This document shows, piece by piece, positions 5,081 through 27,686 of a DNA stretch of 64,000 bases. Both the position numbers and the translations under genes were made by a program. Within the stretch, counting starts at the first letter, position 1, and every line of letters starts with the position of its first letter. Source of the stretch: Spirochaetota bacterium (GTDB taxonomy: Bacteria > Spirochaetota > UBA4802 > UBA5550); NCBI GenBank assembly GCA_963664815.2, contig CAXXHB010000003.1, forward strand, positions 384,001-448,000, written 5' to 3'. The notes below the pieces were generated by a model. That model searched no databases, was not told the DNA's origin, and saw nothing but the letters and a program-made list of their open reading frames with translations.

Positions 5081-6943
5081 ATGACTAGTGAATTAAATTC
5101 AATGTCTGAAATCCGCATAACTGATCTGCGGGTTGAAGACGTAATGACGCGGAATTTCGGTGTTGTAAAACATAACGTGTCTATCAGTGATGTTGTGAAT
5201 TTGATTCTGGCAAATGACTGGGAAGAGATCTTTATAATTGATGAATCAGATAAGTTCATACATATAGTAACAAAGAAACATCTGTTGAACATTATAAAAG
5301 ACGGATTTGACCAGCAGAAACCTATCTCGCATATCTGCAATAATAAAATAATAACAACATCCCCGAAAATTTCCCTGATTGACGCCAGAAGCGTTATGCG
5401 TGAAAACAGGATAGGGCGTTTGCCTGTTGTCGACAAGGACAAAAATGTTCTTGGTGTTTTAACTGCACGCGATGTGTGTAATGGATTTTCATCAAAGCTG
5501 GAAATGCTTGGTGAACATATGTATTCAATTATGGAAAATATTTCTGAAGCCATACAGGTAATAGACTGTACCGGTGTAGTAACTTACTGGAATCATAGTG
5601 CTGAAAAAATGTTTGGTTTTAAAGCATCAATAATTTTAGGTAAAAAGCTTGCTGATTTTATTCCTGATGATCTTCCTTTGAAAGTAATAACAGATCATGA
5701 TACATATCGGGATGTTATAACTGAACTGGATAGTGGAATTGTTATTGTCAGGAATGCGGTACCTGTTATCTCCTCTGGAGGTGAGATGATAGGAGTGGTC
5801 TGTACAAGTAAGGATATCACCGTCACAAAGAATCTTATAAGTAAGATTGACCATTATCAGACGAGAGTCGTTAAACTTGAACAGATTATGGATTCACGTG
5901 AATGCACTCAGGTATCCAATGCAGAAGAAAAGTTTTATACGATAGATACAGAAACATTAACTATATTGAAACAGGCTGCCAGGGTTGCTGCTTCGAATGC
6001 CACGGTTCTTATTACAGGTGAAAGTGGTACCGGGAAAGAGCTTATGGCAAAATATATATATCGTAATAGTCAAAGGTATGATAAACCATTTATTGAAATT
6101 AATTGCGGCGCTATTCCTGAAGCATTATTCGAAAGTGAAATGTTCGGCTATGAATCCGGTGCTTTTACGGGAGCGTCTAAAAATGGTAAACCTGGAAAGT
6201 TTGAACTTGCCAAACTGGGAACTCTTTTTCTGGATGAAATAGGGGAGCTGCCGATAGAAATGCAGGCAAAATTCCTGCGCGTTCTCCAGGAGAAAAATTA
6301 TTACCGGGTAGGAGGGAAAACACCTCTGGTAAGTGATGTGAGGATTATCGCTGCGACAAACCGCGATATGAAAAAACTTGTAGAAGAGAATATATTCCGA
6401 AAGGATCTCTTTTATCGTATGAGTGTTGTTGTTCTGGAAATACCACCTTTAAGAGAAAGAAAATGCGATATCCCGGGTCTTATTCAACTGTTCATCAATC
6501 AGCTGAATCTTCAATATGGAAGATCTATCAGTGGTATTGGTTCTGATGTTATTGATTTATTGACCGATTATTCCTGGCCTGGTAATGTAAGGCAGCTTCA
6601 CAATATACTCGAAAGAATATTTATTCTCAGTGAAGATAATTATATTACATTGCAGACAGTAAGTGAATCCGGTTTAAATACAACATTATCTGGTGACAGG
6701 ATTAACATGAATAATAAACCAGTTATTTCAGAGATTGAGGAGCCAATTAACAGTAATATAAAACTTGATGAATTAATTGATACTCGAGAAAGGGAAGTAA
6801 TTCTTGAAGTTCTTAAAAACTGTGATTATAATAAATCTCAGGCAGCGCAGGTTCTGGGAATTCCCCGCAGTACGTTATATTACAAATTGAAGGTTCTTGA
6901 TATAGAGACTGATCTTGTTTCAAAAAAACTGACATTTTGTTAA
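5081..6943 (+). CDS. Sigma-54-dependent transcriptional activator (CBS pair-PAS-AAA+-Fis HTH)
   Basis: CBS motifs (VEDVMTR, GRLPVVD), PAS (YWNHSAEKMFG), Walker A GESGTGKE, ESEMFGYESGAFTGA, LFLDEIGE, WPGNVRQL, HTH NKSQAAQVLGIPRSTLYYKL; ATG 5081 follows GGAGA. Confidence 0.93.
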   Translation: MTSELNSMSEIRITDLRVEDVMTRNFGVVKHNVSISDVVNLILANDWEEIFIIDESDKFIHIVTKKHLLNIIKDGFDQQKPISHICNNKIITTSPKISLIDARSVMRENRIGRLPVVDKDKNVLGVLTARDVCNGFSSKLEMLGEHMYSIMENISEAIQVIDCTGVVTYWNHSAEKMFGFKASIILGKKLADFIPDDLPLKVITDHDTYRDVITELDSGIVIVRNAVPVISSGGEMIGVVCTSKDITVTKNLISKIDHYQTRVVKLEQIMDSRECTQVSNAEEKFYTIDTETLTILKQAARVAASNATVLITGESGTGKELMAKYIYRNSQRYDKPFIEINCGAIPEALFESEMFGYESGAFTGASKNGKPGKFELAKLGTLFLDEIGELPIEMQAKFLRVLQEKNYYRVGGKTPLVSDVRIIAATNRDMKKLVEENIFRKDLFYRMSVVVLEIPPLRERKCDIPGLIQLFINQLNLQYGRSISGIGSDVIDLLTDYSWPGNVRQLHNILERIFILSEDNYITLQTVSESGLNTTLSGDRINMNNKPVISEIEEPINSNIKLDELIDTREREVILEVLKNCDYNKSQAAQVLGIPRSTLYYKLKVLDIETDLVSKKLTFC

Positions 6944-7005
6944 GTAATTCTACGTTTATTTTAATTAATTGCAGCTCTTTTATGTAATCCGGAGAGGAAG
7001 AAAAA

Positions 7006-8289
7006 ATGGCAACTTATCAGGAAATCAGACAAATGTGGTCAGATATAGGCATTGATCTGGATAAGCATGATATTTTTCTGGATACATTCCCCGGAGTATA
7101 TAAACGGATAATTCAGAAGCAGGAAAGAAGACCCGATAAGATAGATTATTTCAGCAGGATGGTGGCCAGTGTACATGGACGCCGTCCTTATGAACTTTTT
7201 GAACATAAACAGCAAGGGGGTAAGGTTTTTGGTGTCTATTGTGTTTATGTTCCGGATGAAATTATTCTGGCTTTAGGTGGAATCAGTACTGGTTTATGCG
7301 GTGGCGATCAGTTCTGGGTTCCCGGCGGAGAGAAATATTTGCCGGCAAATACCTGCCCATTGATTAAGTCTTCTATGGGATCACGCCTTGACAGAACCAG
7401 TCCCTTTTGCCAGATAGCAGATATCTTTATCGGGGAAGCTACATGTGACGGGAAGAAAAAAGCCTGGGAAATTCTGGCTCAGGATGTACCTATGCATATA
7501 ATGCAGGTACCACAGATGAAAAGGGAGGAGGACATCCGGAGTTTTGTCAGTGAAATACGGCAACTGATAAAAGTTTCCCAGGGTTTAACCGGTAAGCATT
7601 TAACCTTTGATGCTCTGGCCAGGAGTATAGTTACTATAAACAACAAGCGCAGAGCATTGAGCCGGCTTAATCTGACCAGACAGGCATCACCTGTACCCAT
7701 CAGCGGTAAGGACGCCCTCATGGTCATACAGGTGGCTTTCTATGATGATCCAATACGTTTTGTTGAAATGATCAATATTCTCTGTGATGAACTGGAAGAC
7801 AGGATAATTAAAAGAGAAGGTACTTTTTCTGCTGATACCCCCCGTATACTTGTGACGGGAACACCAATGGCTCTGCCAAACTGGAAACTTCATCACCTGA
7901 TAGAGACTTCCGGAGGAGTTGTTGTTTGTGAAGAAAGCTGCACAGGTACACGGTATTTTGAAAATCTTGTTGATGAAAACAGCAGTAATTTGGAAGAACA
8001 GATTATGGCTTTGGCCGATCGCTATATGAAAACCAATTGTGCATGTTTTACCCCCAATAGTGCACGGATTGAAGATATTCTTCGCTATGTTAAAGATTAT
8101 AATGCAGACGGTGTTATAGATTGCTCTCTGCAGTTCTGTGGTCTTTATTCCACAGAAAGTTATCTGCTGAGAGAGGCTTTGCGAAATGAAGGGATCCCCT
8201 TTCTTCATCTGGAAACGGATTATAGTGAACAGGATTCAGGACAGCTGCAGACGCGGATTGAGGCTTTCATGGAAATGATAAAAAAATAG
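7006..8289 (+). CDS. Double-cubane [8Fe-9S] cluster protein (DCCP)-like reductase, 2-hydroxyacyl-CoA dehydratase family
   Basis: Single-chain ~427 aa with Cys set YCVYVP, GLCGG, NTCPLIKSS, TCDGKKK, EESCTG, CACFTPN, LQFC and HLETDYS..D.GQL.TR.EAF. Confidence 0.8.
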   Translation: MATYQEIRQMWSDIGIDLDKHDIFLDTFPGVYKRIIQKQERRPDKIDYFSRMVASVHGRRPYELFEHKQQGGKVFGVYCVYVPDEIILALGGISTGLCGGDQFWVPGGEKYLPANTCPLIKSSMGSRLDRTSPFCQIADIFIGEATCDGKKKAWEILAQDVPMHIMQVPQMKREEDIRSFVSEIRQLIKVSQGLTGKHLTFDALARSIVTINNKRRALSRLNLTRQASPVPISGKDALMVIQVAFYDDPIRFVEMINILCDELEDRIIKREGTFSADTPRILVTGTPMALPNWKLHHLIETSGGVVVCEESCTGTRYFENLVDENSSNLEEQIMALADRYMKTNCACFTPNSARIEDILRYVKDYNADGVIDCSLQFCGLYSTESYLLREALRNEGIPFLHLETDYSEQDSGQLQTRIEAFMEMIKK

Positions 8290-8484
8290 ATTTCAAATTA
8301 GAGAGAGCTGCACTAAGAACTGTCGTACATGATTTTAATTTGAAATTTAAAGATGAAATGTTGAGAATTTAATGAGTAAGGAATTAAATAGAGGTTTGTT
8401 CATTAAGATATGCAGCTTTCTTTACTAAATAGTAAGATGTTAAGGCAGACTCATTAGAATGATTTTAATCAGGGTGGTTTATTA

Positions 8485-9048
8485 ATGACTAATGAAGGAT
8501 TGAAACACAGAAGAGCGAAAATCGAGAAATCAAAGGATATTCTTTTAATTACTGTCCCTTCAATGAAGAAAATTTCATTCATTATATTTCTGGTTGCATC
8601 TTCATGTGTCTGGATATTGGGAGAAAAGGTTGTTGTTGCATTAATTCTAAAGATGGAGGTGCTTCAGGGATTTAATATTATTTTTATGCTCTGGTTTATA
8701 GTATGGACTATAATGGGGTTCTATCTGTTTCTGAAACTGCTATGGGTGATAGCGGGAAGGGAGATAGTTACCATATTGCCAGGGACTTTGAAAATCGAAA
8801 AAGCATATATTATCGGGATTCTCAGAAGCAGAGAGTACCTGCTGGAAGGGGTTAAAGATATTCAGATTGTACCAAATGCATCATTACGACACCGAAGAGG
8901 AGTTGTGTACAATACATTTTTCAAGGGGTATATTAAATTTAATTATGGTAAAAAAACTATTGCATTTATGAGCAGTGTGGATGAGGAAGAAGCCGGATAT
9001 ATTCTTGAACAGATCAAACAATATATTTATAACAGTAATGCTGTCTGA
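8485..9048 (+). CDS. Hypothetical membrane protein (2 TM plus soluble C-terminal domain)
   Basis: 187-aa ORF with two hydrophobic helices. Confidence 0.65.
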   Translation: MTNEGLKHRRAKIEKSKDILLITVPSMKKISFIIFLVASSCVWILGEKVVVALILKMEVLQGFNIIFMLWFIVWTIMGFYLFLKLLWVIAGREIVTILPGTLKIEKAYIIGILRSREYLLEGVKDIQIVPNASLRHRRGVVYNTFFKGYIKFNYGKKTIAFMSSVDEEEAGYILEQIKQYIYNSNAV

Positions 9049-9244
9049 TCTGCAGATTTACTGAACGCCATGATTAAATTATATTCTTTTTTCAGCCAGT
9101 AAGCCAGCATTATTAATACCCTGAACATGAATTTATTTAGTATAATAATTATTTTTTAGAGATTATTATACTAAAACCTGGACTTTTACAGAATAATTAT
9201 AATTTTATATGACGTTCAAGTATGAGAAATCTGACAGATCGATG

Positions 9245-9279
9245 TGTCAAAAGCCTGACATATTGTCAGGTTCCTGACA
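9245..9279. promoter_or_regulatory. Tandem palindromic enhancer boxes TGTCA-N6-TGACA (putative activator UAS)
   Basis: TGTCAaaagccTGACA (9245-9260) and TGTCAggttccTGACA (9264-9279), plus an extra TGACA half-site at 9232-9236. Confidence 0.65.
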
Positions 9280-9845
9280 CTTTGCTGATTTGTTTACGCT
9301 GTAAAATCCGAGAAATAGACATATACTATCTATATTCCTCAATTTCAGATTAACGTAAATTTTTGTTAATAAAAAAGATTTCAACATATTAATTGGACGG
9401 TCTGTATTTAATATATTTTTTTATTTTATTCTGGAAGATTAAAATCTTCTTTCATTAGTAGCTGTGTACACTACTTCTGATTCGTAATTACAGTTTTTAT
9501 TAAAAAAATAAAATAATTCTTTCATTAATCAAGGCTCTTTATTGTTGCCATTATTATTGAATGGCTGCTCTGCATTCTCTATTAGTTTCTTTTTGAGAAG
9601 TATTACCTGTTGCGAGTGTAATACATGCTCTCGAATTATATCCAGTACTTACTGATCATTTTTAAATGCTCAGATTATCATCTTCACTTTATGCATATCA
9701 TCCTTTCCTTTTATTAAAGCTTAATCGGCTCTTCTTCTTTCTATAAAGAAAATCTGTTTCTATAAAATAAAAGTCATGATTAACTTAACATGCATGTTGG
9801 GTAGTGACATTAAAATTATTCAGGTGCTGCAAATATTTTGAGGAT

Positions 9846-9860
9846 TGGCATGGAATCTGC
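9846..9860 (+). promoter_or_regulatory. Sigma-54 (-24/-12) promoter of the CstA-family transporter
   Basis: TGGCATGGAATCTGC: GG-N10-GC spacing, about 47 bp upstream of the GTG start. Confidence 0.75.
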
Positions 9861-9907
9861 GAATTATAATTACAGTACTACAAATAATTAAATTCTAAAA
9901 AGGAGAG

Positions 9908-11572
9908 GTGCAATATATGGTACTTACTACTTCGACCCTGACAATTATCGGGTTGGCAATCTGGACTTTTGGATTTTTAATCATCAGCGGATACCTGCAG
10001 AAAACTTATCTCAAATTTAAGCCAGGCAGGAAAGTTCCGGCAGTTGAATTCCGTGATGACGTGGATTTTTATCCAGCTAATCCGGTAACTCTGTTTGGAG
10101 ATCACTGGGCTTCAATTGCCGGTGGAGCTCCTTTAGCCGGAGGAGCAACCGGTGCTATGTGGGGTTTTCTGCCCGCATTCCTTTACATCACCGTAGGTAA
10201 CATATTTCTGGGATCACCCCATGACTATGCTACAATGCATCTATCCATGCGCAAAAAAGGTATGACTATAGGGCTCCTTATCAGGGAACTTATAAGTGAA
10301 AGAGCCGGTAAGATGGGTGTTTTTCTCGGATGGTGCAGTATTGCTGCGTTTATGGCTGTTTTTTTAACAGCGCTTGCCAAGCTTTTCGTGGCTACTCCTG
10401 AAATGACACTTCCTACATTTGCGTTCACAGGCTGCGGAGTTATGATGGGTTTTCTGATTTATAAGTTCGGCTGGTCAGTAACAAGAGCGACAGCTATTGG
10501 TATAGTTATAGTTGCAATTTGTATTGTTCTGGGTATGTATCACCCGATAAGTTTACCGTTTTATGTCTGGTTTGCTATTTTCACTATTTACCCGGTTGTT
10601 TCAGCTTCTATTCCTGCCTGGATGCTGGTTGAACCGAGAAACTTTCTTAATTTCTGTTTTATGTGCGTAGGTGCGACAGCACTGTTAATCGGCTGTATCG
10701 TTGGTAATATTCCAATTCAGCTGCCGGCAGTTATAGCCACCACAAAACAGGGTCCACTATGGCCTATGCTGTTTTTAACGATCTCATGCGGAGCATTAAC
10801 CGGAATGCACTCTTTCTGGACAACGGGATATACTTCAAGACGTGTTCCTGATGAGAAATATGTACGTATTATCGGTTACGGCGGCGAAGTGCTTGAAGGT
10901 CTCACTGCATTTGTAGCCCTGGCTTCTGCAGCTGTTCTTCCGTTAGCTGTATACACTGAATATATAGCCAAGGGCTGGATATTTATACTTCAGAACGGCT
11001 ATGCACAGATTGCAGGAAGTGTATTTACTTTTATTACCTATCACTCCTGGGCTGTGTGGGGAGGATTGCTTGGAAGTATTTTTATGATCACAACGCTGGA
11101 ATCCGGCGCACGAAATATGAGAATTTTTATGCTGGAACTCTGGGGAATGTTTGTTAAACCTGTATCTCCTAATAATGGGGCGGCTAAATGGGGAGCTGCA
11201 TCTCTTTCACTTGTTGCCTGTGCTGCATTATCTCTTTCCGGAGGATGGTTCTATATCTGGATTCTATTCCCCGCGCTATCAAGTCTGCTTGCGTTGATGT
11301 CATTCATGACAGTTATCATATGGCTTAAGCTGGTTGGAAGACCTACAGGGTATTTCTGGTTTGCATTGCTAATCACAACTTTTGTCATAGCATTACCGGG
11401 AGCAGGTTACCTCAGCTATACGTATATAGTTAAAGGTATGTATCATCTTGCCTGGATACCGGCTCTTGCGATTGTACTGACAGCATTTTTCTATGTTGAC
11501 TTCTTCAAGAAAAAGAATTCAATAACTGCTCAGGAAATTGAAATAGCTTCAAAAGTTGAAGAAGCTGTTTAA
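9908..11572 (+). CDS. CstA-family (carbon starvation/BtsT-like) transporter
   Basis: PAVEFRDDVDFYP, LFGDHWASIAGGAPLAG, GSPHDY, PLWPMLFLTISCGALTGMH, many TM helices; AGGAGAG RBS. Confidence 0.88.
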   Translation: MQYMVLTTSTLTIIGLAIWTFGFLIISGYLQKTYLKFKPGRKVPAVEFRDDVDFYPANPVTLFGDHWASIAGGAPLAGGATGAMWGFLPAFLYITVGNIFLGSPHDYATMHLSMRKKGMTIGLLIRELISERAGKMGVFLGWCSIAAFMAVFLTALAKLFVATPEMTLPTFAFTGCGVMMGFLIYKFGWSVTRATAIGIVIVAICIVLGMYHPISLPFYVWFAIFTIYPVVSASIPAWMLVEPRNFLNFCFMCVGATALLIGCIVGNIPIQLPAVIATTKQGPLWPMLFLTISCGALTGMHSFWTTGYTSRRVPDEKYVRIIGYGGEVLEGLTAFVALASAAVLPLAVYTEYIAKGWIFILQNGYAQIAGSVFTFITYHSWAVWGGLLGSIFMITTLESGARNMRIFMLELWGMFVKPVSPNNGAAKWGAASLSLVACAALSLSGGWFYIWILFPALSSLLALMSFMTVIIWLKLVGRPTGYFWFALLITTFVIALPGAGYLSYTYIVKGMYHLAWIPALAIVLTAFFYVDFFKKKNSITAQEIEIASKVEEAV

Positions 11573-11925: not shown

Positions 11926-12192
11926 ATGCAAAATGGTGAATTAACACAGGTTCAAAAACTTTATCTTGAAGCTTTAAAAGACGGTCCAAAAGAATCAGGT
12001 CAACTAACGACTATTGTGCGAAATAGGCTTACTCAGATTAAAAGCGGGAATAATCCTGTAGGAGCGACAGGGAGAGCTCAGGCAGTGCTGGATGAGCTTG
12101 AAAAAGACGGTTATATTGTTGTAATATCGAAGAAGCTTTTCGGTGGTAAAAAATATGACATTACAGATAAAGGTAAAGGAATTATTGGTTAG
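11926..12192 (+). CDS. Small winged-helix (PadR-like) protein
   Basis: LEALKDGP, LDELEKDGYI, KKYDITDKG wHTH pattern; AGGAGGT RBS. Confidence 0.7.
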   Translation: MQNGELTQVQKLYLEALKDGPKESGQLTTIVRNRLTQIKSGNNPVGATGRAQAVLDELEKDGYIVVISKKLFGGKKYDITDKGKGIIG

Positions 12193-12198
12193 GACAGC

Positions 12199-13167
12199 AT
12201 GACAAAAATGCATCAGGCGAAATTAGAGATCCTTAATAACCGCTTGGATCGTCTGGAAAAAGACGTTCAGAGAATACAGGCTTATAATGGCAAGGGGATG
12301 AAGGCTGATAATTCGCTCAATGATGTATACTCCAGTTTTGTAAACATGGGAGAAATCCTTAAGCAGACTCAGGCAGAGAATAACAACAAAACAGATGAAT
12401 TAAATGATATATGTGTAAGGTATAAAGATCTGTTTGCTAAATTTGAGTTCGTTGCAGATGAATTCAATTCGCAGAACAAAGGTATGGTTCTCGTAAGTAA
12501 AAGAGCCATACCTGAATTTTTTTATAATATAACCATGCGCTATCGCAGGTTCTGGAATATATATGAGAAGATTGCAACCTTCTTTGGAGTTGGAATTATC
12601 GCTTTCACTTTAATCATATTGACATACTTTTCTGCTTATGGTCACTTCCCGTTGTTACAACAAAACAGTGGAGGAACACAGGCGATAAAAGCTTTTGGGT
12701 TTATAGCTGGTCTTGTTATAGGGCTATGTGTGCATGAATTTGCTCATGGAGTTGTTCTTGCTAATAATGGCATTAAAATCAAACAGGTAGGTGTGATGGC
12801 AGGTTCTATGGTCGGAGGATTTATAGAGGCTGAAGAGACTACTTTTTTCCAGGCTGACCGGAGAGTACATTTAAGATTTAATGCATCGAGTATCGGAACC
12901 AATGCTTTGCTGGCTGTATTATTGGGATTAATTGCGATGTTAACTTCTTCCGGACTTTTATTATACCTGTCATTAGGAAATCTGTTTTTTGGCATAATAA
13001 ATTCATTTCCGATTCTCCCTCTGGACGGGGGATGGGTTTATGAAGATTTAATTAATATTTACCTGACAAATAAAATCATCAGAAAGATACTACTATATGC
13101 AAGATTTGCCTTTGCCATACTTTGGCTAATCCTTTTTACTTTTTCTGTTCTCTCGTATCATTCATAG
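12199..13167 (+). CDS. Site-2 protease (M50) family intramembrane metalloprotease with N-terminal coiled coil
   Basis: HEFAH zinc motif and NSFPILPLDGG motif; TM helices. Confidence 0.85.
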   Translation: MTKMHQAKLEILNNRLDRLEKDVQRIQAYNGKGMKADNSLNDVYSSFVNMGEILKQTQAENNNKTDELNDICVRYKDLFAKFEFVADEFNSQNKGMVLVSKRAIPEFFYNITMRYRRFWNIYEKIATFFGVGIIAFTLIILTYFSAYGHFPLLQQNSGGTQAIKAFGFIAGLVIGLCVHEFAHGVVLANNGIKIKQVGVMAGSMVGGFIEAEETTFFQADRRVHLRFNASSIGTNALLAVLLGLIAMLTSSGLLLYLSLGNLFFGIINSFPILPLDGGWVYEDLINIYLTNKIIRKILLYARFAFAILWLILFTFSVLSYHS

Positions 13168-13524
13168 CATGTTAACCAATATCAGCGGACGTTGAGTAAT
13201 TAGCCGTTTTGCTGTTAAGTGTTTTGTTAGGTGCTGCATCAGTTTCAGATGTTTGGGTTATAGTTTTGCATATATTATAACTTATCCATGTATGTAGTAA
13301 CATTCAGCGGGGAGAGAACAGCTGAATCGGTCTGAGTATGAAATTTACAGATGAAACCTGATAAGAATCTGCTCAAAGTATCCTTTATGAACCTGAAATA
13401 TTCATCGTACACCGGACTTCACAAAACATTTACATTTAAAAAATGAGACCCATGACTGTGAAATTATAAATCAGTTTATAGTCATGAGTCATCAGATCAA
13501 TTTTTTTCTACCGGTAGATCCATG

Positions 13525-13728
13525 TTATTTAAAATTGAAACCGGATGCATTATCAACTTCCTTTTTCATATCATCTTCTTTATCTGTTTTAGTTGCTGAA
13601 GCATCAGTTTTCTTTTCTTCAGCCGCAACCGGAGAAGACTTATCTGCTTTTTTGCAGCTTGTGAAAGCAAAACCTGACGTTAATACCAAAGTAAGTACAC
13701 ACATTACAGCGAGAATCTCTTTCTTCAT
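13525..13728 (-). CDS. Small lipoprotein (67 aa)
   Basis: MKK + hydrophobic stretch + FTSC lipobox, charged low-complexity tail; AGGAG RBS. Confidence 0.7.
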   Translation of the reverse strand: MKKEILAVMCVLTLVLTSGFAFTSCKKADKSSPVAAEEKKTDASATKTDKEDDMKKEVDNASGFNFK

Positions 13729-14048
13729 AAAAATACAACTCCTGTTATAATAATTTTTTAACCCTTAATATATCATGGGTTAAAAAAAGCAAAAATATTT
13801 TTTAAATTTTTTTATTTTGAATAAAGTACAGCGTGAGTATCGTTGATAAGGTGAAGCGATGATTGTTGCGAAGTAAAATTTTTATGTTGAGTAATCTGCC
13901 ATTCAACATCCATCTGTTGGTATACTTTTTCGGATTACGGATTTCTTTCTTATATGTTTTAACTTCTTCGGGGCAACTAAGATGAAACCACTACGTATTC
14001 AATTCGGCATTCCGGAGTTGAAAGTCCTACCGGATGATGTGAAAAAAA

Positions 14049-14064
14049 TGTCAACTTTCTGACG
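14049..14064. promoter_or_regulatory. UAS box TGTCA-N6-TGACG upstream of the hdr operon
   Basis: TGTCAactttcTGACG about 160 bp upstream of the -24 element; further TGACA at 14105-14109. Confidence 0.6.
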
Positions 14065-14221
14065 CCACTATTCAAAAAACGGGCACATCTTAATTCTGAA
14101 AATCTGACAATTGAAAAATATTATTAATAAAACACAGAATGAATAAGAATATTAATAATAAAACCTGTTTAAACTGGAAGAATTTAGCTTAAAGAGGCGC
14201 TTTATAATGGTTTTTATAGCT

Positions 14222-14237
14222 TGGCATGATTATTGCA
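14222..14237 (+). promoter_or_regulatory. Sigma-54 (-24/-12) promoter of the hdr/CoA-transferase operon
   Basis: TGGCATGATTATTGCA, near-consensus with exact GG-N10-GC spacing. Confidence 0.85.
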
Positions 14238-14289
14238 TATTTATAATAAATAATAATACAAAAATATTTATTTTTTTTGGAGGTATAGT

Positions 14290-16878: not shown

Positions 16879-16879
16879 T

Positions 16880-19514: not shown

Positions 19515-20308
19515 TGGAATATTCTAAAAATGAAGGGATGGCGATTGCCACAGGGAGAGAATTTAATGATGGTGAGCTTGCAATATTCGGCGTGGGTCTG
19601 AGTATGCTTGCAGGATTTTTCGCACAGAAGAATCATGCTCCGAATCTTATAGCATTCACTGAGGGTGGAGTATACGGGTCTACTCCTGTCGGAGGACTGC
19701 CGTGGGGTATTGAGGATAACCGCATATCCGCGAATGCAACAAGCTTTACAAATGCCATTGATGCTCTTGGTATGCTCGTGGCATCGGGCAGGGTCGACAA
19801 TGCTGTAATAGGGGCTGCACAGATTGATAAATTCGGAAACGTTAATACTACAGGTATATGGGACGAAGGAACACAGCCGTGGAAGGTTGGAAGATATACT
19901 CTTCCAAAAGTAAGACTTAACGGAAGCGGCGGCGCTAACGAAATCGCTGTTGGTGCCAAAAAATATTTAATAATGGCAGCTCATGAGAAAAAAAGATTTG
20001 CCGACAGAGTGGATTATATTTCCTCACCCGGCTACATTGATGGAGGAAATGCACGCCAGAGATACGGTTTTCCTGGTGGCGGCCCTTCAGCTATCATCAC
20101 AAATCTTGGTATACTGAGGCCTGATCCGGTAACAAAGGAATTTTATCTGGATGCGTATTTCAGCCATTCGTCTGTTGAAGAAATAATAGAGAATACAGGC
20201 TGGGTGTTAAAGATATCTCCGAATGTCAAGATGGTTCCTGAACCAACTGAGAAAGAACTTGAGAATCTGAGAGCGGTTGATGCGACAGGATCGCTACGGA
20301 AAAAATAA
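19514..20308 (+). CDS. CoA-transferase subunit B (GctB-like), copy 1, catalytic Glu retained
   Basis: FGVGL, FTEGG (Glu50), GAAQIDKFGNVN, RLNGSGGAN, VDYISSPG, ENTGW. Confidence 0.87.
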   Translation: MEYSKNEGMAIATGREFNDGELAIFGVGLSMLAGFFAQKNHAPNLIAFTEGGVYGSTPVGGLPWGIEDNRISANATSFTNAIDALGMLVASGRVDNAVIGAAQIDKFGNVNTTGIWDEGTQPWKVGRYTLPKVRLNGSGGANEIAVGAKKYLIMAAHEKKRFADRVDYISSPGYIDGGNARQRYGFPGGGPSAIITNLGILRPDPVTKEFYLDAYFSHSSVEEIIENTGWVLKISPNVKMVPEPTEKELENLRAVDATGSLRKK

Positions 20309-20316
20309 TATATTGG

Positions 20317-20360
20317 CAGGCAGCATAATAACCATGTGAAACATGATTATTTTCTGCCTG
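20317..20360 (+). terminator. Stem-loop between the two CoA-transferase pairs (terminator or mRNA stabiliser)
   Basis: CAGGCAG...ATAACCATGT-gaa-ACATGATTAT...CTGCCTG followed by TTT. Confidence 0.45.
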
Positions 20361-20459
20361 TTTAAAATAAGGTAAAGAATTTAATTCAGTATTTATATTC
20401 AGTCACTTGGAACCAGTAGTAGAAAGAGTAAAAATAAATTTAATCAAAGGAGGTTGAAA

Positions 20460-21275
20460 ATGCACGAAAAGTTGATGTCATTATCAAAGGCTGCCGATCT
20501 CATCAGAAATGATATGCTGCTCAGCTTCGGTGGTAATGGGATGCATCGTAATCCTGTTGCTTTTGCATTAGCCCTTACAAAGAGACCTTTAAAAAGTCTC
20601 AGGATGTGCGGGGCTGCACCTGGAATTGCGACTGATATCATGATGCCACAGTCTTGTGAAGCATATTTCGGTTTTTTTGGTCTGGAAAATGAGGCCGGCC
20701 TGGCACCAGGTATGAGAAAAGCGATGGAGGGGGCAAATCCTACAGTCAAGGCATATGAGGGTTCCTGAACGGCGATGATTGCTGCTCTCCGTGCGGGAGC
20801 CTATGGAATACCCTTTATGCCAGTCGGAGGCATGTGGGGAAGCGACTTAGTTGCATTACGCCCAGATTTTTATCAAGTCATGAAAAGCCCGTTTGACGGG
20901 AAAGAAGTAGTATGTGTTAAAGCTCTTGTGCCTGATTATGCCGTAATTCATGTACAGGAAGCGGATATCTACGGGAATGCCCGTATACTCGGCCCGAGTT
21001 ATCAGGATGCGCTTCTTGCAAGAGCAGCAAAAAAAGTAATAATAACAGCAGAGCGAATAGTGGGTACATACCGGATGCAGGAAGAACCTAAGCTTACGGC
21101 AATTCCTCATATGCTGGTTGAAGCTGTTGTTGAAGTACCCGGCGGTGCTAAACCCGGAATTTGTTATCCTGATTATCTCACTGCTGACTGGGATGCTCAT
21201 AAGGCTTATCAGAAAGCTGTGAAGGAAGGTACGGTATCGGACTGGGTGGCTAAACTTTTGGAAGGGAGGTCATAA
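20460..21275 (+). CDS. CoA-transferase subunit A-like protein, copy 2; putative selenoprotein (in-frame UGA at codon 103)
   Basis: ORFs 20454-20768 and 20775-21275 share a frame and are separated only by TGA-ACG-GCG; joined 271-aa product (..AYEGS-U-TAMIAALRAGAYGIPF..) is collinear with copy 1; AAGGAGGT RBS before ATG 20460; SECIS-like hairpin downstream. Confidence 0.8.
20784..20800 (+). promoter_or_regulatory. Putative bacterial SECIS element
   Basis: GCTC(T)CC-GTGC-GGGAGC: 6-bp stem with bulged U and a loop starting GU, loop G 22 nt after the UGA. Confidence 0.7.
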
Positions 21276-21276
21276 A

Positions 21277-22014
21277 ATGGAATATGGAAAACCTGAAATG
21301 ATGGCAGTAGCCCTCATACGTGAAATACAGGAAAATGACGTTGTGTTCCATGGTCTTGCTTCATCTACTCCAATGGTGGCCATGAAAGCGGCCAAGGCAC
21401 TTGGCAAAGATTATACATATGTTACTCTCAGTGACGGTCTGGACCATGACTGGAAAAGACCCCCATATTTCGCATCCACACTTTCTGAAAATACTTATAC
21501 TGGTTCCGTGGCGACTTTCGGACTGGATGAAATATTCGATCTTTATATGTCCGGTAAAGGAGATATAGCTTTCCTTTCATGCCTTCAGATGGATAAAACA
21601 GGAAGGATCGCGATGTCATACGTTGGCGGAGAATATGATCATCCGAAACTCAGGGGGCCGGGAGGAGCAGGCAGCGCCTCGCTTACGCCTATGACTCCCA
21701 GAACAATAATCTGGAAAACTCAGCATGACAAGAGAACTTTTATCGAGCACGTAGATTTTGCAACAACATCACCGGCTGTTGATAAAATGTTCACTCTGGT
21801 TACGCCTCTTTGTATTTTCAGGAAGCCGGTTGGAGAAAAACTTCTTAAACTGGATTGTATTTTCCCGTACACAACACTGGAAGAAGTTAAGGAAAATACC
21901 GGATGGGTAATTGATGAAACAAAAGTACCTGTAATGGATCCCCCTACAGAGGCTGAATTGTCAGCAATCAAGAGAGTGGATCCTAACAATATTCTTGCTT
22001 ACGAGTTTAAATAG
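21277..22014 (+). CDS. CoA-transferase subunit B-like protein, copy 2, lacking the canonical catalytic Glu
   Basis: VFHGLAS, QMDKTGRI, KLRGPGGAGS, HDKRTFIEHVDF, ENTGW; 'TLSDG' where copy 1 has 'TEGG'. Confidence 0.83.
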   Translation: MEYGKPEMMAVALIREIQENDVVFHGLASSTPMVAMKAAKALGKDYTYVTLSDGLDHDWKRPPYFASTLSENTYTGSVATFGLDEIFDLYMSGKGDIAFLSCLQMDKTGRIAMSYVGGEYDHPKLRGPGGAGSASLTPMTPRTIIWKTQHDKRTFIEHVDFATTSPAVDKMFTLVTPLCIFRKPVGEKLLKLDCIFPYTTLEEVKENTGWVIDETKVPVMDPPTEAELSAIKRVDPNNILAYEFK

Positions 22015-22143: not shown

Positions 22144-23805
22144 ATGGTGATTTTTATGAGTAAAAAAGTACTTATAGTCGGAGGTGTTGCAGGTGGAGCC
22201 AGCACTGCTGCGAGACTCAGGAGACTTGACGAAAATGCTGAGATTATTATGTTTGAACGTGGTGAATTTATTTCATTTGCCAACTGCGGGCTTCCATATT
22301 ATGTAGGGGGTGCTATTGTAAACAGGAAAAGCCTTTTCGTACAGACTCCTCAGTCAATGAAAAAACGATTTAACCTGGACGTTCGTATACACAGCGAAGT
22401 CGTAAAAATTTTTCCTTCTGAAAAGAAGGTTGAAGTCCGCAGCATTCAGAAAGGGGAGAATTACTTTGAGACCTATGATTACCTTGTACTTTCTCCGGGA
22501 GCGCAGCCCGTTTTACCGGACATAAAAGGACTGAATCTTCCAAATGTATTCAGTGTCCGCAATGTTCCTGACAGTGATGCAATAAAGCAGTTTATCGATG
22601 CTCATAAGCCTGCAACAGCTGTGATAATAGGCGGAGGTTTTATAGGTATGGAAATGGCAGATGTGCTTCATCAGTGCGGAGTAAAGACAACTGTTGTTGA
22701 AGCGGCAGACCGGATTATGAATCTCTGGCTTGACGGGGAAATGGCAACAACAGTACAGCAGTATATAAATAAGAAAGGAATAGAGCTTGTTTTAAATGAT
22801 AAAGTTGCGGTTCTCGAGGGTTCTTCTGGAGTTGAGAGGGCAGTTCTTGAAAGCGGCAGAGAAATTTCTGCGGAGATTGTAATTCTCGGTACAGGAGTAA
22901 AACCTGAGGTATGGCTTGCAGAAGATGCCGGACTTGTCATTGGCTCCACGGGCGGGATACACGTGGATGAATATCTGCGGACCTCAAATGAATTTATTTA
23001 TGCAGTTGGCGATGCCATTGAAGTAAAAAATATGATTACGGATAAATATGAACTGATGTTTCTTGCAGGTCCTGCCAACAGGCAGGGGAGGCTTGCGGCA
23101 GATAATATTGCAGGAAGACCATCTAAATATTCCGGTTCACAGGGAACAGCAATAATAAAAATAATAGATATGACTGTGGCTGTAACCGGTGCGAACGGGA
23201 AAAGTCTCAGTAATTCAGGAATACCTTTTCTCGCGTGTCATATACATCCCGCTTCTCATGCGGCATACTATCCCGGCGGAACGCAGATGTCGATCAAACT
23301 TTTTTTCACCCCTGATGAAGGAAAAATCCTCGGGGCACAGATTGTGGGATTTGACGGAGTTGACAAGCGCATTGATGTTTTTGCAACTGCTGTCAGGGCT
23401 GGAATGACAGTGTTTGATCTCACTGAGCTTGAGCTGGCCTATGCACCCCCATTTTCATCGGCAAAGGATCCAGTGAATATGGCCGGGTATGTGGCCTCAA
23501 ACATATTGCTTAAGGATATTGAAGTGGTTTACTGGAAAGATGTTCCGGCACTTGTTTCAGGAGGTGCATTTCTCCTTGACGTTCGCATGCCGTCAGAAGT
23601 AGAGGCTGGGGCGGTTAATGGTTCGGTTAATATACCTGTTGATGATCTGAGAAACCGCATTGAAGAGATACCTAAAGACAAGGTGATCCTGGTTTACTGC
23701 CAGGTGGGTCTGCGTAGCTATATCTCTAATCGTATATTAAAGCAGAAAGGATTTATTGTAAAGAATATCAGCGGAGGATACAAGTCCTTCCAATCACAAA
23801 AGTAA
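22144..23805 (+). CDS. cdr: CoA-disulfide/persulfide reductase with C-terminal rhodanese domain
   Basis: GGVAGGASTAARLRR, redox Cys SFANCGLPY, GGGFIG, LAYAPPFS, rhodanese YCQVGLRS. Confidence 0.9.
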   Translation: MVIFMSKKVLIVGGVAGGASTAARLRRLDENAEIIMFERGEFISFANCGLPYYVGGAIVNRKSLFVQTPQSMKKRFNLDVRIHSEVVKIFPSEKKVEVRSIQKGENYFETYDYLVLSPGAQPVLPDIKGLNLPNVFSVRNVPDSDAIKQFIDAHKPATAVIIGGGFIGMEMADVLHQCGVKTTVVEAADRIMNLWLDGEMATTVQQYINKKGIELVLNDKVAVLEGSSGVERAVLESGREISAEIVILGTGVKPEVWLAEDAGLVIGSTGGIHVDEYLRTSNEFIYAVGDAIEVKNMITDKYELMFLAGPANRQGRLAADNIAGRPSKYSGSQGTAIIKIIDMTVAVTGANGKSLSNSGIPFLACHIHPASHAAYYPGGTQMSIKLFFTPDEGKILGAQIVGFDGVDKRIDVFATAVRAGMTVFDLTELELAYAPPFSSAKDPVNMAGYVASNILLKDIEVVYWKDVPALVSGGAFLLDVRMPSEVEAGAVNGSVNIPVDDLRNRIEEIPKDKVILVYCQVGLRSYISNRILKQKGFIVKNISGGYKSFQSQK

Positions 23806-23918: not shown

Positions 23919-25433
23919 ATGAAAAAAATTATTATTTCCACGATTTTCCTTTCTTTAATATTGATTTCACTTCCTAATACAATTTATTTGTACGCAAGTA
24001 ATACACAGGCTGCAGTAAAAATTCAGGATAATGTTAATGTTGAAGATAATGTAAAGAATGGAACTGTTGGTACGAGTATTTCTGAACATAGTAATCCTCA
24101 TATCAATGCTAAAAATTTAAGTCTTTTATGGATAATTCCATTTATTGGTATACTCCTGTCAATTGCCCTTTTACCACTTTTTACGCCGGACTTCTGGCAC
24201 CACCATTATGGCAAAGTGTCGATCTTCTGGTGGCTAACATTTTTTGTGGCGTTTTCTGTTAAATTTGGAATAGGTATCGGTTCCTACTACCTTCTGGAAG
24301 TATATCTGATGGAGTTTATTCCATTTATAACTCTGCTCCTTGCCCTTTTTACTGTTGCCGGAGGCATTCAGCTTAAAGGGGAGCTTGCAGGAACGCCAAA
24401 AGTAAACACTGTCATGATCCTTATAGGAGGTATACTTGCAAGTTTTATGGGTACAACCGGAGCAGCAATGGTAATGATACGACCTGTTCTGAAGGCAAAC
24501 GAATGGAGAGCAAACAGAGCGCATATAGTTGTTTTTGTAATTTTCGTTGTTGCCAATGTAGGGGGTGGACTTACCCCTCTCGGTGATCCTCCTCTATTTC
24601 TTGGTTTCCTTAAAGGAGTTGATTTTTTCTGGACAGTGAAGCATATGTTTCCACTTGTTGCTTTTACAATCGGGATACTCCTCGTAATTTTCTTTATAAT
24701 GGATACATATTATTACAGTAAAGAAAAAAATAAACCGGTAAAAGATGCTGCCGGGGAAAAGTTAAAACTCATTGGTATACCCAATATGCTTTTAATTCCA
24801 TTAATAATTGGAGCTGTCATAATATCAAGCATCGACATGGGAACTGCCTTCACTGTTCATTTCGTTGCAGTGCAATTATCATCAATCTTTCAGGTTATGC
24901 TTCTTCTTGTCATAACTATCATTTCGCTCAGGGTATCAAACCCGGATATAAGAGAAGCGAACGGATTCAGCTGGGAGCCGATCAGGGAAGTCTCAAAACT
25001 TTTCGCAACAATTTTCATGACTATGGTTACACCGATTGCTATGCTCAGAGCCGGAGTTGACGGACCTATGGGGATGGTTGTAAGAGGAGTTGCCGATAGC
25101 AGCGGTAATTTTATCAATTCTCATTTTTTCTGGGCGGCAGGTGCCCTTTCAAGCTTTCTTGATAATGCCCCAACATATCTTGTTTTCTTTAATACTGCAG
25201 GGGGCAGCCCTGTTGATCTGATGGGTGTTCATGCCGGAACGCTTATTGCAATAAGTGCCGGTGCAGTTTTCATGGGGGCAAATACATATATCGGCAATGC
25301 CCCTAATTTTATGACAAAATCAATCGCGGAAGAGTCTGGTGTGGCAATGCCGAGTTTTTTCGGGTATATGTTTAAATATTCAATACCGATCCTTATTCCG
25401 GTATTTATTCTGGTAACATATATATTTTTTTAA
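23919..25433 (+). CDS. Ion-transporter superfamily membrane protein (putative Na+/H+ antiporter or carboxylate transporter)
   Basis: FWHHHYGK, GTTGAAM, ANVGGGLTPLGDPPLFLG, SFLDNAPTY, TYIGNAPNF. Confidence 0.85.
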   Translation: MKKIIISTIFLSLILISLPNTIYLYASNTQAAVKIQDNVNVEDNVKNGTVGTSISEHSNPHINAKNLSLLWIIPFIGILLSIALLPLFTPDFWHHHYGKVSIFWWLTFFVAFSVKFGIGIGSYYLLEVYLMEFIPFITLLLALFTVAGGIQLKGELAGTPKVNTVMILIGGILASFMGTTGAAMVMIRPVLKANEWRANRAHIVVFVIFVVANVGGGLTPLGDPPLFLGFLKGVDFFWTVKHMFPLVAFTIGILLVIFFIMDTYYYSKEKNKPVKDAAGEKLKLIGIPNMLLIPLIIGAVIISSIDMGTAFTVHFVAVQLSSIFQVMLLLVITIISLRVSNPDIREANGFSWEPIREVSKLFATIFMTMVTPIAMLRAGVDGPMGMVVRGVADSSGNFINSHFFWAAGALSSFLDNAPTYLVFFNTAGGSPVDLMGVHAGTLIAISAGAVFMGANTYIGNAPNFMTKSIAEESGVAMPSFFGYMFKYSIPILIPVFILVTYIFF

Positions 25434-25649: not shown

Positions 25650-25664
25650 TAGATGATATTAATC

Positions 25665-26093
25665 TTAATCCAGCTCGAATCCCATGATAGTACATCCTTT
25701 TTCATCATCATCAAGCCATACGACATGCACAGGGGCATCATAAGGAACTTTTTCAATATTGCTATAGTTTATCAGTCGGCCGAACACACGCGGCCCTTCG
25801 TCCAGGGTGACAGAGCATATGGCGAGGGGCAGGTATTCCTTAATAGCCTTATGGAATGGGAAGCGGCCTTCCACGAAGGAGTAAATTTTGCCATGACCGG
25901 AAACTTCTTTCCAGTCAACATCGGCGCTGCCACAGTGCTGGCAGATAAAACCCCCCGGCCAGTAATACTTGCCGCAGCTCTTGCAGTGGGGCAGTAAAAA
26001 CTTATGCTCATCATGAGCAGTCTTGTAAAACAGTTCGTTGTCAGAGCTGGTTCTGAGGTCAAAAGGCAGATTTACTTTTAATGCATTAGCCAT
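25665..26093 (-). CDS. DUF35 zinc-ribbon/OB-fold protein (thiolase partner)
   Basis: CKSCG..WP...CQHCG, WKEVSGHGKIYSF, VTLDEGPR. Confidence 0.88.
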   Translation of the reverse strand: MANALKVNLPFDLRTSSDNELFYKTAHDEHKFLLPHCKSCGKYYWPGGFICQHCGSADVDWKEVSGHGKIYSFVEGRFPFHKAIKEYLPLAICSVTLDEGPRVFGRLINYSNIEKVPYDAPVHVVWLDDDEKGCTIMGFELD

Positions 26094-26095
26094 TG

Positions 26096-27289
26096 TTATT
26101 CCCCCCTTTCTACAATTATAGTTTCGTTGCTCTGATAATAACCGCCGTTATCAGAGATAAGCATGAATTCAGGAAGCTTTGTGCCCGGTATTACCCCTAA
26201 CTGACGATCTCCGCAGCGCTTAGACATCTGCATCACCGCCTCAGCCATCGGAGTAAGGCCCATATAATAACCTTCAGAGAGCAGACCGCCTCCAGTGTTT
26301 ACTGGGAATGCGCCGCCGGGCCCGATATTTTCCACTGTCATGAAGTCGCGGGATTTATTCTTGTCGAAGAACCCATAGTCACCCAGAGTTGCCTCAACTG
26401 TGTATGTGTAGCAATCGTATATCTGGGCTGCACCTATGTCTTTTGGCTCTAAGCCGGCCATCTGGAAAGCTTCACGTCCGGCTACAGCGGCACTGCTTGC
26501 GGGATCACCCGGTGTAAGCTGCCAGCCTTTGGAGGTGTCATTGGCAGCACCGAAACTGCGGATCTTTACGGGCGGATTCTTAAGGTGTTTAGCCCGTTCT
26601 GTGGTGGTGATGATAACAGCCCGGCCGCCGTCAGTTGATGCCGTGGCATCTAAGGCACGGAATGGCCATGAAAGAAACGGTGTAGCCAGGTAGTCATCCT
26701 TTGTCAAAGGCTTGCTGTACTGAATGGCCTTGGGATTCAGATTAGCCCATTTGCGGTGTGCAATAGCTATATCTCCCCATACATCGGGCCCTGTCCCATG
26801 TTCATGCATGGCACGACTGGCGAAAATTGCATAATTTGTGAAAGCAGAAATATTACCGTAAGCGCCGTACTCATCATAGGGCTTGTTGCTTAACAGGTCA
26901 ATTTCGTCTGTCCATGTACGGCGGCCGGTTCTGCCACTCTCGGCAAATACAATCAGTACATATTTACATGTACCGTTTTCAAGAACACCAATCGCTTTAT
27001 TGATGTTGGTGCGGTAGCAGTAAGCTTCCTGGCTTAAGAATTTCGGGCGTATGCCCAGACTGGAGGTTATTACGTTGGCTGTATGGTGAAAAGCGTCTCC
27101 AGACAAAATTGGAAAATCACGGTAAAGAATCAGACCATCTATATCATCCTTCTTTAATCCCGCATCATTAATGGCGTTCATGGTCGCTTCGAGATAAAAA
27201 CTCGCTGCGGAACGTCCAGAAACTACTCCCTGCGGTGTATAACCGACACCGGCAAAGGCATATTTGTTTCTTAATCCTGTACGATCCAT
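26096..27289 (-). CDS. Thiolase-fold protein, SCP2/Ltp2 (aldolase)-like
   Basis: GVGYT, DAGL..DIDG, A.LNPKA, STDGGRA, AQIYDCYT, VNTGGGLLSEGY, QMSKRCGDRQ; lacks GHP.GA. Confidence 0.82.
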   Translation of the reverse strand: MDRTGLRNKYAFAGVGYTPQGVVSGRSAASFYLEATMNAINDAGLKKDDIDGLILYRDFPILSGDAFHHTANVITSSLGIRPKFLSQEAYCYRTNINKAIGVLENGTCKYVLIVFAESGRTGRRTWTDEIDLLSNKPYDEYGAYGNISAFTNYAIFASRAMHEHGTGPDVWGDIAIAHRKWANLNPKAIQYSKPLTKDDYLATPFLSWPFRALDATASTDGGRAVIITTTERAKHLKNPPVKIRSFGAANDTSKGWQLTPGDPASSAAVAGREAFQMAGLEPKDIGAAQIYDCYTYTVEATLGDYGFFDKNKSRDFMTVENIGPGGAFPVNTGGGLLSEGYYMGLTPMAEAVMQMSKRCGDRQLGVIPGTKLPEFMLISDNGGYYQSNETIIVERGE

Positions 27290-27476
27290 AAATGTGTCCT
27301 CCTTAACTTATTTTGCTATAGATTTTATTGTTTTGAGAGATTCCGCTGTTAACAGAGCAGATGGCAAAAGGAGAAATGCAAATAAAGACAGAAAATATTC
27401 ATTCCATTGGCTATCTACATGTTTCAAGTCAGTACCTTCATGGTGGAATAAAAAATCTTAAACTGATTATATAAAT

Positions 27477-27492
27477 TGCATTATTCGTGCCA
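27477..27492 (-). promoter_or_regulatory. Sigma-54 (-24/-12) promoter of the thiolase/DUF35 operon
   Basis: Minus strand TGGCACGAATAATGCA, exact GG-N10-GC spacing. Confidence 0.85.
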
Positions 27493-27655
27493 GTTTAGTG
27501 AATTTATTGTCGGGGAAAACTTGTGCGGAATTACTCCTGATTAAGAAACTTTAATCGTGAATTGAAGAAAAACCGGCAAAAAGCCGGATGTAATATGTAA
27601 TAGATATTTATCTATAAGATTATGATGACATCATATGACGGTTTTTTGAATGAAA

Positions 27656-27686
27656 TGTCAAAAAACTGACGTCAGTAATATTGACA
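27656..27686. promoter_or_regulatory. UAS boxes upstream of the thiolase operon promoter
   Basis: TGTCAaaaaacTGACG (27656-27671) overlapping CGTCAgtaatatTGACA (27670-27686), about 165 bp from the -24 element. Confidence 0.6.

Follow-up and report, generated by a model that had tools for sequence, protein, structure and literature searches.

We propose that the gene cluster at positions 5057 to 27686 of a 64,000-nucleotide stretch of contig CAXXHB010000003.1 from a Spirochaetota bacterium (the whole stretch is referred to here as the window) encodes a system that probably breaks carbon-sulfur bonds in coenzyme A (CoA)-activated acids in syntrophic anaerobes. The enzyme in question, here called pair 2, is an alpha/beta pair with the CoA-transferase fold; its alpha subunit very probably contains selenocysteine (Sec), and its beta subunit lacks the catalytic Glu of true transferases. 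It is encoded with a glutaconate-type CoA-transferase (pair 1), a heterodisulfide reductase-like (Hdr-like) complex, and a CoA-disulfide reductase (CoADR) fused to a rhodanese domain (Cdr). The folds and modules are known; the Sec site in a CoA-transferase fold, its link to a complex resembling sHdr (the sulfur-oxidizing Hdr-like system), and a cleanly delimited regulon are new. Gene identities were taken from the list of open reading frames (ORFs), followed by Pfam and NCBIfam profile scans of the window proteins. By these means all of the genes claimed in the initial annotation of this DNA were found at 5057-27686, and three were added: those for a CitMHS_2 transporter, an 88-residue protein, and an M50-like membrane protein.

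The probable selenocysteine and the missing glutamate of pair 2

The pair 2 alpha gene (20454-21275, plus strand) contains an in-frame TGA at 20766-20768. Read as Sec, it gives a single CoA_trans protein of 273 residues, with the Sec, in the motif EGSU, at position 105 if translation starts at the TTG at 20454 or at position 103 if it starts at the ATG at 20460. Comparison with relatives indicates that this TGA is very probably a real Sec codon. We collected 80 homologous loci from contigs of one genome per species, and the Sec column was readable in 79 of them: the codon is TGA in 30, TGC in 32, and TGT in 17. A database search with the alpha subunit returned 296 relatives, the full-length ones of which have Cys at this column. 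Among the 120 database matches listed, 79 are fragments of 150 to 174 residues that hold only the part after the TGA (54 to 61% of the query), from which it follows that gene callers split the alpha gene at this codon. An antisense ORF family (c10; 256 residues, 13 loci) was considered as a conserved neighbor and rejected, as it only mirrors the split alpha gene on the opposite strand.

Downstream of the TGA is a hairpin resembling a selenocysteine insertion sequence (SECIS), at 20784-20800 on the plus strand, with a 6-bp stem and a CGUGC loop; it starts 18 nucleotides (nt) after the U of the UGA. A hairpin with at least six consecutive pairs (6 to 8 bp) and a 5-nt loop occurs in 27 of the 30 TGA loci as well as in the window, and in none of the 49 Cys loci, where no stem exceeds three pairs. 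The CGUGC loop is present in 26 of the 30 TGA loci, and compensatory changes preserve the stem in distant members. Only this position-specific stem count separated Sec from Cys loci: minimum free energies over +12 to +48 did not (Mann-Whitney p = 0.88), plain folding of the 71 nt that surround the TGA gave no greater stability than shuffled sequences did (z = -0.35), and Rfam at gathering thresholds reported only a tRNA in the window (44859-44930) and no SECIS family. The genome encodes tRNA-Sec, SelA, SelB, and SelD, and its SelD gene (G000:C3:2287335-2288261) itself holds an in-frame TGA.

In a quick maximum-likelihood tree of the alpha genes, 29 Sec genes and one Cys gene form a single clade with full support. 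Two Thermodesulfobacteriota loci (L078 and L080) have Sec at the same column, in the motif EHAU, within an otherwise Cys clade, and their hairpin is in a different register; judged by this placement, they represent a separate Cys/Sec exchange. One further row of the tree (L083) is labeled Sec owing to a stop elsewhere in the match, and its residue at the column is Cys.

Both pair 2 subunits have the PF01144 fold (61.6 bits for alpha and 38.2 bits for beta, against a cut-off of 23 bits). The beta subunit (21277-22014, plus strand) has Leu at the catalytic-Glu column, Leu or Ile is found there in 61 of 61 homologs, and no Cys is conserved at 90% or more in the beta family. Pair 2 should be unable to transfer CoA because its beta subunit is without this Glu, and we therefore predict that it is not a CoA-transferase. 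The description of pair 2 in the initial annotation, as a Sec-containing pair without the Glu, is thus borne out by the TGA/Cys column, the hairpin, and the beta homologs.

The best solved relatives of the alpha subunit are GctA, AibA, and IpdA, and that of the beta subunit is AibB (E value, 1.3e-17). The Sec/Cys column aligns with an IpdA residue for which 6co6 and 6con show E and 6coj shows A; we take this residue to be the catalytic Glu105, and 6coj to be the E105A variant. Since Sec or Cys replaces the Glu at this column, the pair 2 alpha proteins appear from their alignment to be a distinct subfamily. Apart from the Sec/Cys position, the only invariant Cys in alpha is C237, which GctA and AibA share. 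There is no second conserved Cys specific to the family, so that the resolving thiol is probably a small molecule.

Each of these relatives resembles pair 2 only in part. With a Glu-less beta subunit joined to a glutaconate-type alpha subunit, pair 2 conforms to the non-transferase branch of IpdAB and AibAB. IpdAB (6co6, 6coj, and 6con) is likewise an alpha/beta pair resembling glutaconate CoA-transferase, with an acyl-CoA as its substrate but no CoA transfer, and its key residue lies in the alpha subunit at the column of the window Sec; however, IpdA has Glu there, whereas the window family has Sec or Cys and is linked to disulfide reductases. AibA/AibB (5mzw-5n03), presumably a 3-methylglutaconyl-CoA decarboxylase, shares the fold and also lacks the catalytic Glu, but AibA has Gly at the Sec/Cys column and the enzyme has no redox partners. 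GctAB (1poi) shares the fold and the subunit organization, and pair 1 is its close relative; in contrast, the pair 2 beta subunit is without the Glu, and GctA has neither Cys nor Sec at the alpha column. The IpdAB reaction, that of the cholesterol ring-C hydrolase, is described in PMC6678751 as a hydrolytic retro-Claisen cleavage.

A Sec enzyme on the CoA-transferase fold is apparently undescribed. A term search of two selenoproteome reviews (PMC13188914 and PMC9312934, from 2026 and 2022), the supplementary tables of which could hold such an entry, gave no CoA-transferase or PF01144 protein. A search of the ESM Atlas returned generic CoA-transferase names only, and in the literature we found no description of the cluster or of a Sec-containing protein with this fold. 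The family, which gene callers routinely split at the TGA, would add selenoproteins to a fold for which no use of selenium is known.

A conserved operon under probable sigma-54 control

Upstream of pair 2 on the plus strand lie five hdr genes: hdrC1 (14290-14883; a 4Fe-4S dicluster protein), hdrB1 (14876-15835; two CCG domains), hdrA (15832-16878), hdrC2 (16859-17476), and hdrB2 (17476-18351; two CCG domains). HdrA is short (348 residues), with FAD and one Fe-S site in an sHdrA-like architecture, and its residues 5-342 match residues 2-340 of PDB 6tjr (349 residues), that is, from end to end. The window complex shares with sHdr the order C1-B1-A-C2-B2, but it lacks the hyp gene between hdrA and hdrC2; its hosts, unlike those of sHdr, are strict anaerobes, and it is tied to CoA enzymes. 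According to PMC6067878 and PMC11094781, sHdr loci have the order hdrC1B1A-hyp-C2B2, and genes for a lipoate-binding protein and for sulfur transferases are linked to them. Neither a lipoate-binding protein nor DsrE or TusA turned up in a search confined to 19 proteins of the locus, in which Cdr, through its rhodanese domain, provides the only such element.

The hdr genes are followed by pair 1 (alpha, 18528-19514; beta, 19514-20308; plus strand; Pfam), the beta subunit of which matches GctB (1poi_B) at an E value of 5.8e-41, with its TEGG aligned to ESG, Glu on Glu. Behind pair 2 is cdr (22144-23805, plus strand). Like CoADR-RHD, Npsr, and the CoA-persulfide reductase (3icr, 3nta, and 8a56), its product is a flavoprotein with a C-terminal rhodanese domain. 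It matches all three over its full length (E values, 1.6e-182 to 1.9e-155), and both candidate active-site cysteines can be read in the motifs FANCGLPYY and YCQVGLRS; its TIGR03385 score, 500 bits, is under the cut-off of 578.8. What sets Cdr apart from these enzymes is the position of its gene, in a sigma-54 operon and behind that of a Sec enzyme. The full-length match of Cdr to persulfide reductases fits the release of sulfide from a mercapto substrate.

The first gene of the cluster (5057-6943, plus strand) encodes a sigma-54 enhancer-binding activator with the domain order CBS-CBS-PAS-AAA+-HTH_8 (Pfam). It is closest to PrdR (NCBIfam NF041552), at 583 bits and under the cut-off of 795. Other genes assigned to the regulon are cstA (9908-11572, plus strand; PF02554), for a short, 554-residue form of the CstA-family transporter, and, on the minus strand, DUF35 (25665-26093) and an SCP-x/Ltp-type thiolase (26096-27289), identified by Pfam and NCBIfam.

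The shared promoter architecture that the initial annotation had ascribed to three operons holds up well. The pattern TGGCA-N7-TGC has four matches in the window, a count that alone is not above chance (shuffle mean, 2.09; 17 of 100 shuffles reach four). Three of the four sites are directly upstream of cstA, hdrC1, and the thiolase and are correctly oriented: TGGCATGGAATCTGCG, a -24/-12-like site at 9846-9861 on the plus strand, upstream of cstA; TGGCATGATTATTGCA at 14222-14237 on the plus strand, upstream of hdrC1; and TGGCACGAATAATGCA at 27477-27492 on the minus strand, for the thiolase operon. The latter two each differ by one mismatch from the consensus TGGCAC-N5-TTGCA. The inverted repeat TGTCA-N6-7-TGAC has seven matches at five sites in the window, where 0.73 is expected and none of 100 shuffles reaches seven, and all of them lie 173 to 601 nt upstream of these sigma-54 sites. 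For the promoter of cstA, two overlapping TGTCA-N6-TGAC repeats at 9245-9279 are putative sites of activator binding, another such repeat (14049-14063) is 173 nt upstream of the hdr promoter, and two TGTCA-N6-7-TGAC repeats (27656-27686) lie upstream of the thiolase promoter. The whole 5.2-Mb genome has 52 promoter-like and 79 repeat matches, and only the three locus promoters have a repeat within 60 to 700 nt. A loose sigma-54 pattern allowing three mismatches was uninformative (137 matches, 148 expected). RpoN is encoded in the genome (376 bits; cut-off, 277), and no terminator-like site was called from hdrB2 to the end of the CitMHS_2 gene, with one behind cstA and one behind DUF35. From this arrangement, the locus is probably one sigma-54 regulon of three transcription units, in which the PrdR-like activator would bind the TGTCA-N6-7-TGAC repeats. 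Because the regulon is small and cleanly delimited, induction experiments should be straightforward.

The upstream repeats of cstA and hdrC1 lie in unusually long, AT-rich intergenic regions (8290-9908 and 13168-14290; approximately 1.1 to 1.6 kb, 32 to 36% G+C). Those of cstA, at approximately 590 nt from the promoter, are far away for an enhancer-binding protein.

Recurrence was counted by comparing the window proteins with the 80 loci, and the 30 loci of the close clade (50 to 77% identity) were examined. Pair 2 is recurrently linked to several of its window neighbors. At least three hdr genes are present in 16, and pair 1 in 17, of the 22 loci with at least 7 kb of upstream sequence, and activator homologs (49 to 59% identity) head the operon in 9 of the 20 loci with 10 kb upstream. 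The gene-neighborhood test that the initial annotation had proposed, anchored on the Sec/Cys alpha subunit, thus came out in favor of hdrCBACB, pair 1, and the activator. It was weaker for cdr (7 of the 26 loci with at least 2.5 kb downstream), for CstA (two loci), and for the thiolase/DUF35 pair, which is inside the operon in L023 alone (DUF35, 80% identity; thiolase, 86%), and it went against the reductase of the double-cubane-cluster protein family (DCCP), which is absent from all 80 loci. The genes usually run in the order activator, hdrC1B1AC2B2, pair 1, a major facilitator superfamily (MFS) transporter (13 loci), pair 2, and sometimes cdr. In L018 and L042, the MFS gene is replaced, between pairs 1 and 2, by cstA with the genes for the 88-residue and M50-like proteins. 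The CstA homologs there are 77 to 80% identical to that of the window, and the 88-residue and M50-like proteins are, respectively, 69% and 54% identical in L018 and 60% and 39% identical in L042. In the window, the latter two genes are behind cstA (11926-13167, plus strand), as identified by profile scans, which assigned no family to the 88-residue protein, and by co-conservation with cstA. This pattern suggests that the three genes form an uptake or sensing module.

Operon hosts, from five families in two phyla, belong to Syntrophomonadaceae, Syntrophobacteraceae, Pelotomaculum, an unclassified Bacillota, and Desulfovibrionaceae. The system is single-copy in the window's genome, and no close homolog, at an E value of 1e-40 or better, was found in 40 relatives of this genome (7 of the same genus, 17 of the family, and 16 of the order). 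The locus genes have a G+C content of 42 to 48%, compared with 38% for contig C3 of the genome, the exceptions being the activator (37%) and CitMHS_2 (39%). In the tree, Syntrophobacteraceae genes are nested among Syntrophomonadaceae genes. The absence from relatives, the higher G+C content, and the nested placement together suggest that the locus was horizontally acquired. For syntrophic bacteria, the linkage would give their Hdr-like complexes a concrete partner enzyme.

The predicted reaction and its alternatives

A hint at the chemistry of the pair 2 family comes from the neighborhoods of its Cys clade, the members of which are approximately 40% identical to the window alpha subunit; the identities given here come from one scanned representative per cluster. 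Directly upstream of alpha in 24 of the 49 Cys-clade loci, all of them in Bacillota, is a gene for a 444-residue CoA-disulfide reductase (NF007123, 554 bits; cut-off, 458). It belongs to a conserved operon with a class II aldolase, an acylating aldehyde dehydrogenase, microcompartment shell proteins, a phosphotransacylase, an iron alcohol dehydrogenase, DhaK/DhaL, a DeoR regulator, and an SBP-like protein. Adjoining this operon are genes for MtnK, the S-methyl-5-thioribose kinase (419 bits; cut-off, 275), and MtnA, the 1-phosphate isomerase (403 bits; cut-off, 279). Microcompartment loci (L043, L048-L051, L056, L061, L063, L065, L070, L072, L076, L079, L081, L088, L090, and L091) occur in Clostridia, Paenibacillaceae, and Erysipelotrichaceae. 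By its gene content, the operon looks like a methylthioribose or 5-deoxyribose microcompartment; our literature search found no description of a methylthioribose microcompartment. In the known dihydroxyacetone phosphate (DHAP) shunt, enzymes of this kind produce DHAP together with 2-(methylthio)acetaldehyde, which the aldehyde dehydrogenase should convert to (methylthio)acetyl-CoA.

The alpha/beta pair of Chloroflexota and Thermomicrobiota is encoded beside an AMP-dependent ligase, often with an aldolase-family gene. Three unrelated routes of acyl-CoA formation therefore adjoin the family: a CoA-transferase in the window, the acylating aldehyde dehydrogenase in the microcompartment loci, and AMP-ligases in Chloroflexota. 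The steadiest partners in both clades are disulfide reductases. The Cys-clade context provides independent, indirect support for carbon-sulfur chemistry on alpha-thio acyl-CoAs, and it is by way of these relatives, behind a CoA-disulfide reductase in MtnK/MtnA loci, that the sulfur chemistry inferred in the initial annotation gains indirect support, whereas the acids it named are candidate substrates.

Thus, we predict the following sequence of events. An organic acid anion would be imported, by CstA here and by an MFS transporter in most relatives, and converted to a CoA thioester by pair 1. Pair 2 would then transform the acyl-CoA with its Sec at the active-site position that the ring-opening hydrolase IpdAB uses: the selenolate would attack the sulfur of an alpha-thio acyl-CoA (a thioether, thiol, or disulfide beside the thioester carbonyl), freeing the enolate of the desulfurized acyl-CoA and leaving a selenosulfide. 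This selenosulfide would be passed to CoA or another thiol, and the sHdr-like HdrC1B1-A-C2B2 complex would reduce the resulting disulfide. The CoADR-rhodanese protein would handle CoA disulfide or persulfide and free a thiol or H2S, and the thiolase/DUF35 pair would process the acyl-CoA product. Thiophilic attack beside the thioester carbonyl fits the lone Sec or Cys, the lack of a resolving Cys, and the CoA/Hdr-type disulfide-reductase partners. It is from this combination of genes that we infer which way the reaction runs, that the substrate bears sulfur, and that a (seleno)disulfide is handed over to Hdr and CoADR, and our confidence in the entire pathway, from C-S cleavage by Sec pair 2 to recycling by Hdr and CoADR, falls somewhat short of even.

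The proposed cleavage resembles the thioether cleavage by 2-ketopropyl-coenzyme M carboxylase and the selenoether cleavage in glycine reductase. In glycine and D-proline reductases, too, a Sec nucleophile is proposed to cut a bond at the carbon beside a carbonyl, with the selenosulfide reduced by a thiol system, and a PrdR-like activator is shared; however, their fold is unrelated, and the window substrate would be a CoA thioester.

More broadly, but only tentatively, the Glu-less heterodimer with Sec or Cys may be a new enzyme class, a thiol-dependent C-S reductase of alpha-thio acyl-CoAs, the Sec form acting with the sHdr-like complex in syntrophs and the Cys form with CoADR in a microcompartment. 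If so, the Sec form would allow syntrophs to use thioether- or mercapto-carboxylates as a carbon source or electron sink, and in Clostridia, Paenibacillaceae, and Erysipelotrichaceae the Cys form would free methanethiol from (methylthio)acetyl-CoA. An anaerobic methylthioribose route would then be closed, leading to DHAP, acetyl-CoA, and recyclable sulfur; the Cys relatives suggest a missing step of anaerobic methylthioadenosine salvage inside the microcompartment. The C-S cleavage model also offers a testable route for the anaerobic breakdown of thioether and mercapto acids, the fate of which is poorly known.

Several observations weigh against C-S cleavage. A single family supplies many of the loci, and these are not independent of one another; cdr is present at a minority of loci. 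Hdr-like and CCG-domain proteins also take part in redox reactions that involve no sulfur, the top NCBIfam score of HdrB2 is to SdhE, a fumarate-reductase anchor subunit, and the operon has no evident gene for an electron donor to the Hdr-like complex. The genes for an acyl-CoA dehydrogenase and EtfAB that lie nearby in L015, L016, L022, L024, and L040 would also fit ordinary fatty-acid-type chemistry. As for the relatives, the Cys clade may act on a different substrate from that of the window protein, MtnK was not found in the host genome, and 5-deoxyribose, which yields sulfur-free acetaldehyde, is processed by MtnK, MtnA, and the aldolase as well.

In a possible, although rather unlikely, alternative, the same architecture serves a sulfur-free substrate: the Sec enzyme would reductively remove an alpha hydroxyl or amino group, or reduce an enoyl- or glutaconyl-type CoA ester, in a Stickland-like manner, and Hdr would only re-reduce the enzyme selenosulfide. 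An activator with its closest match in PrdR, which regulates the selenoenzyme proline reductase, a glutaconate-type pair 1, and a thiolase/DUF35 pair within the regulon would, like the neighboring acyl-CoA dehydrogenase and EtfAB, all be at home in such a pathway; Hdr-like modules also occur in carbon-substrate reductases. However, this alternative leaves unexplained both the rhodanese-fused, persulfide-type reductase and the fact that, in methylthioribose-type loci, the Cys relatives are tightly linked to CoA-disulfide reductase, and hydroxyl and amino groups are poor leaving groups unless further activated.

We consider it improbable that pair 2 is instead a non-redox lyase, hydrolase, or decarboxylase like IpdAB and AibAB, with Sec or Cys as a base or covalent nucleophile and with Hdr and Cdr doing a separate job (electron transfer or thiol homeostasis) in the same pathway. 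Its closest solved relatives after GctA are indeed AibAB and IpdAB, and the thiolase/DUF35 pair would fit beta-keto cleavage following ring or chain opening. Nevertheless, Sec was gained or retained at one column in at least two separate clades, and disulfide reductases are the most constant neighbors in both; the known bacterial Sec/Cys exchange sites, according to PMC9312934, are overwhelmingly redox-active. Finally, we find it scarcely credible that translation truly stops at the TGA, with a split or dead alpha gene in a neighborhood brought together by chance. The splitting of the gene in most database entries and the unremarkable 71-nt fold (z = -0.35) might suggest such a reading, but a same-column stop in 30 species with Cys in others, a position-specific hairpin confined to TGA genes, complete Sec machinery in the genome, and an operon conserved in two phyla speak against it.

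Other genes and features of the locus

Membership of the DCCP gene in the system is doubtful. It encodes an anaerobic reductase (7006-8289, plus strand; NF040772, 473 bits; cut-off, 350), starts 62 nt behind the activator gene, and has no sigma-54 or repeat site of its own. The CitMHS_2 anion transporter gene (23919-25433, plus strand; Pfam) is on the operon strand and is not co-conserved, as none of the 80 loci contains it. The genome has three such transporters, the paralogs at G000:C3:3526585-3528096 and 829100-830596 being 76 to 80% identical to the one here, so that the copy at the locus is not specific evidence on the substrate.

The 145-nt gap between pairs 1 and 2 (20308-20454) contains a long inverted repeat followed by a T-rich stretch, and no terminator was called there. 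Relatives carry the transporter gene in this position; the inverted repeat may act as an attenuator or be what was left behind when a gene was lost.

Genes behind cdr were considered as further partners and rejected: those in L018, L029, and L032 (sporulation, PhoH, and YbeY) and in L033 and L039 (RF-1, PrmC, and Sua5) reflect housekeeping synteny.

Just beyond the regulon, at 28214-31948 on the minus strand, are genes for a second thiolase (412 residues) and for an 819-residue fusion protein with ferredoxin-like, pyridine-nucleotide-disulfide-oxidoreductase, and nitroreductase domains. Inside the fusion gene, at 31803 on the plus strand, is a sigma-54-like site with one mismatch and no upstream repeat.

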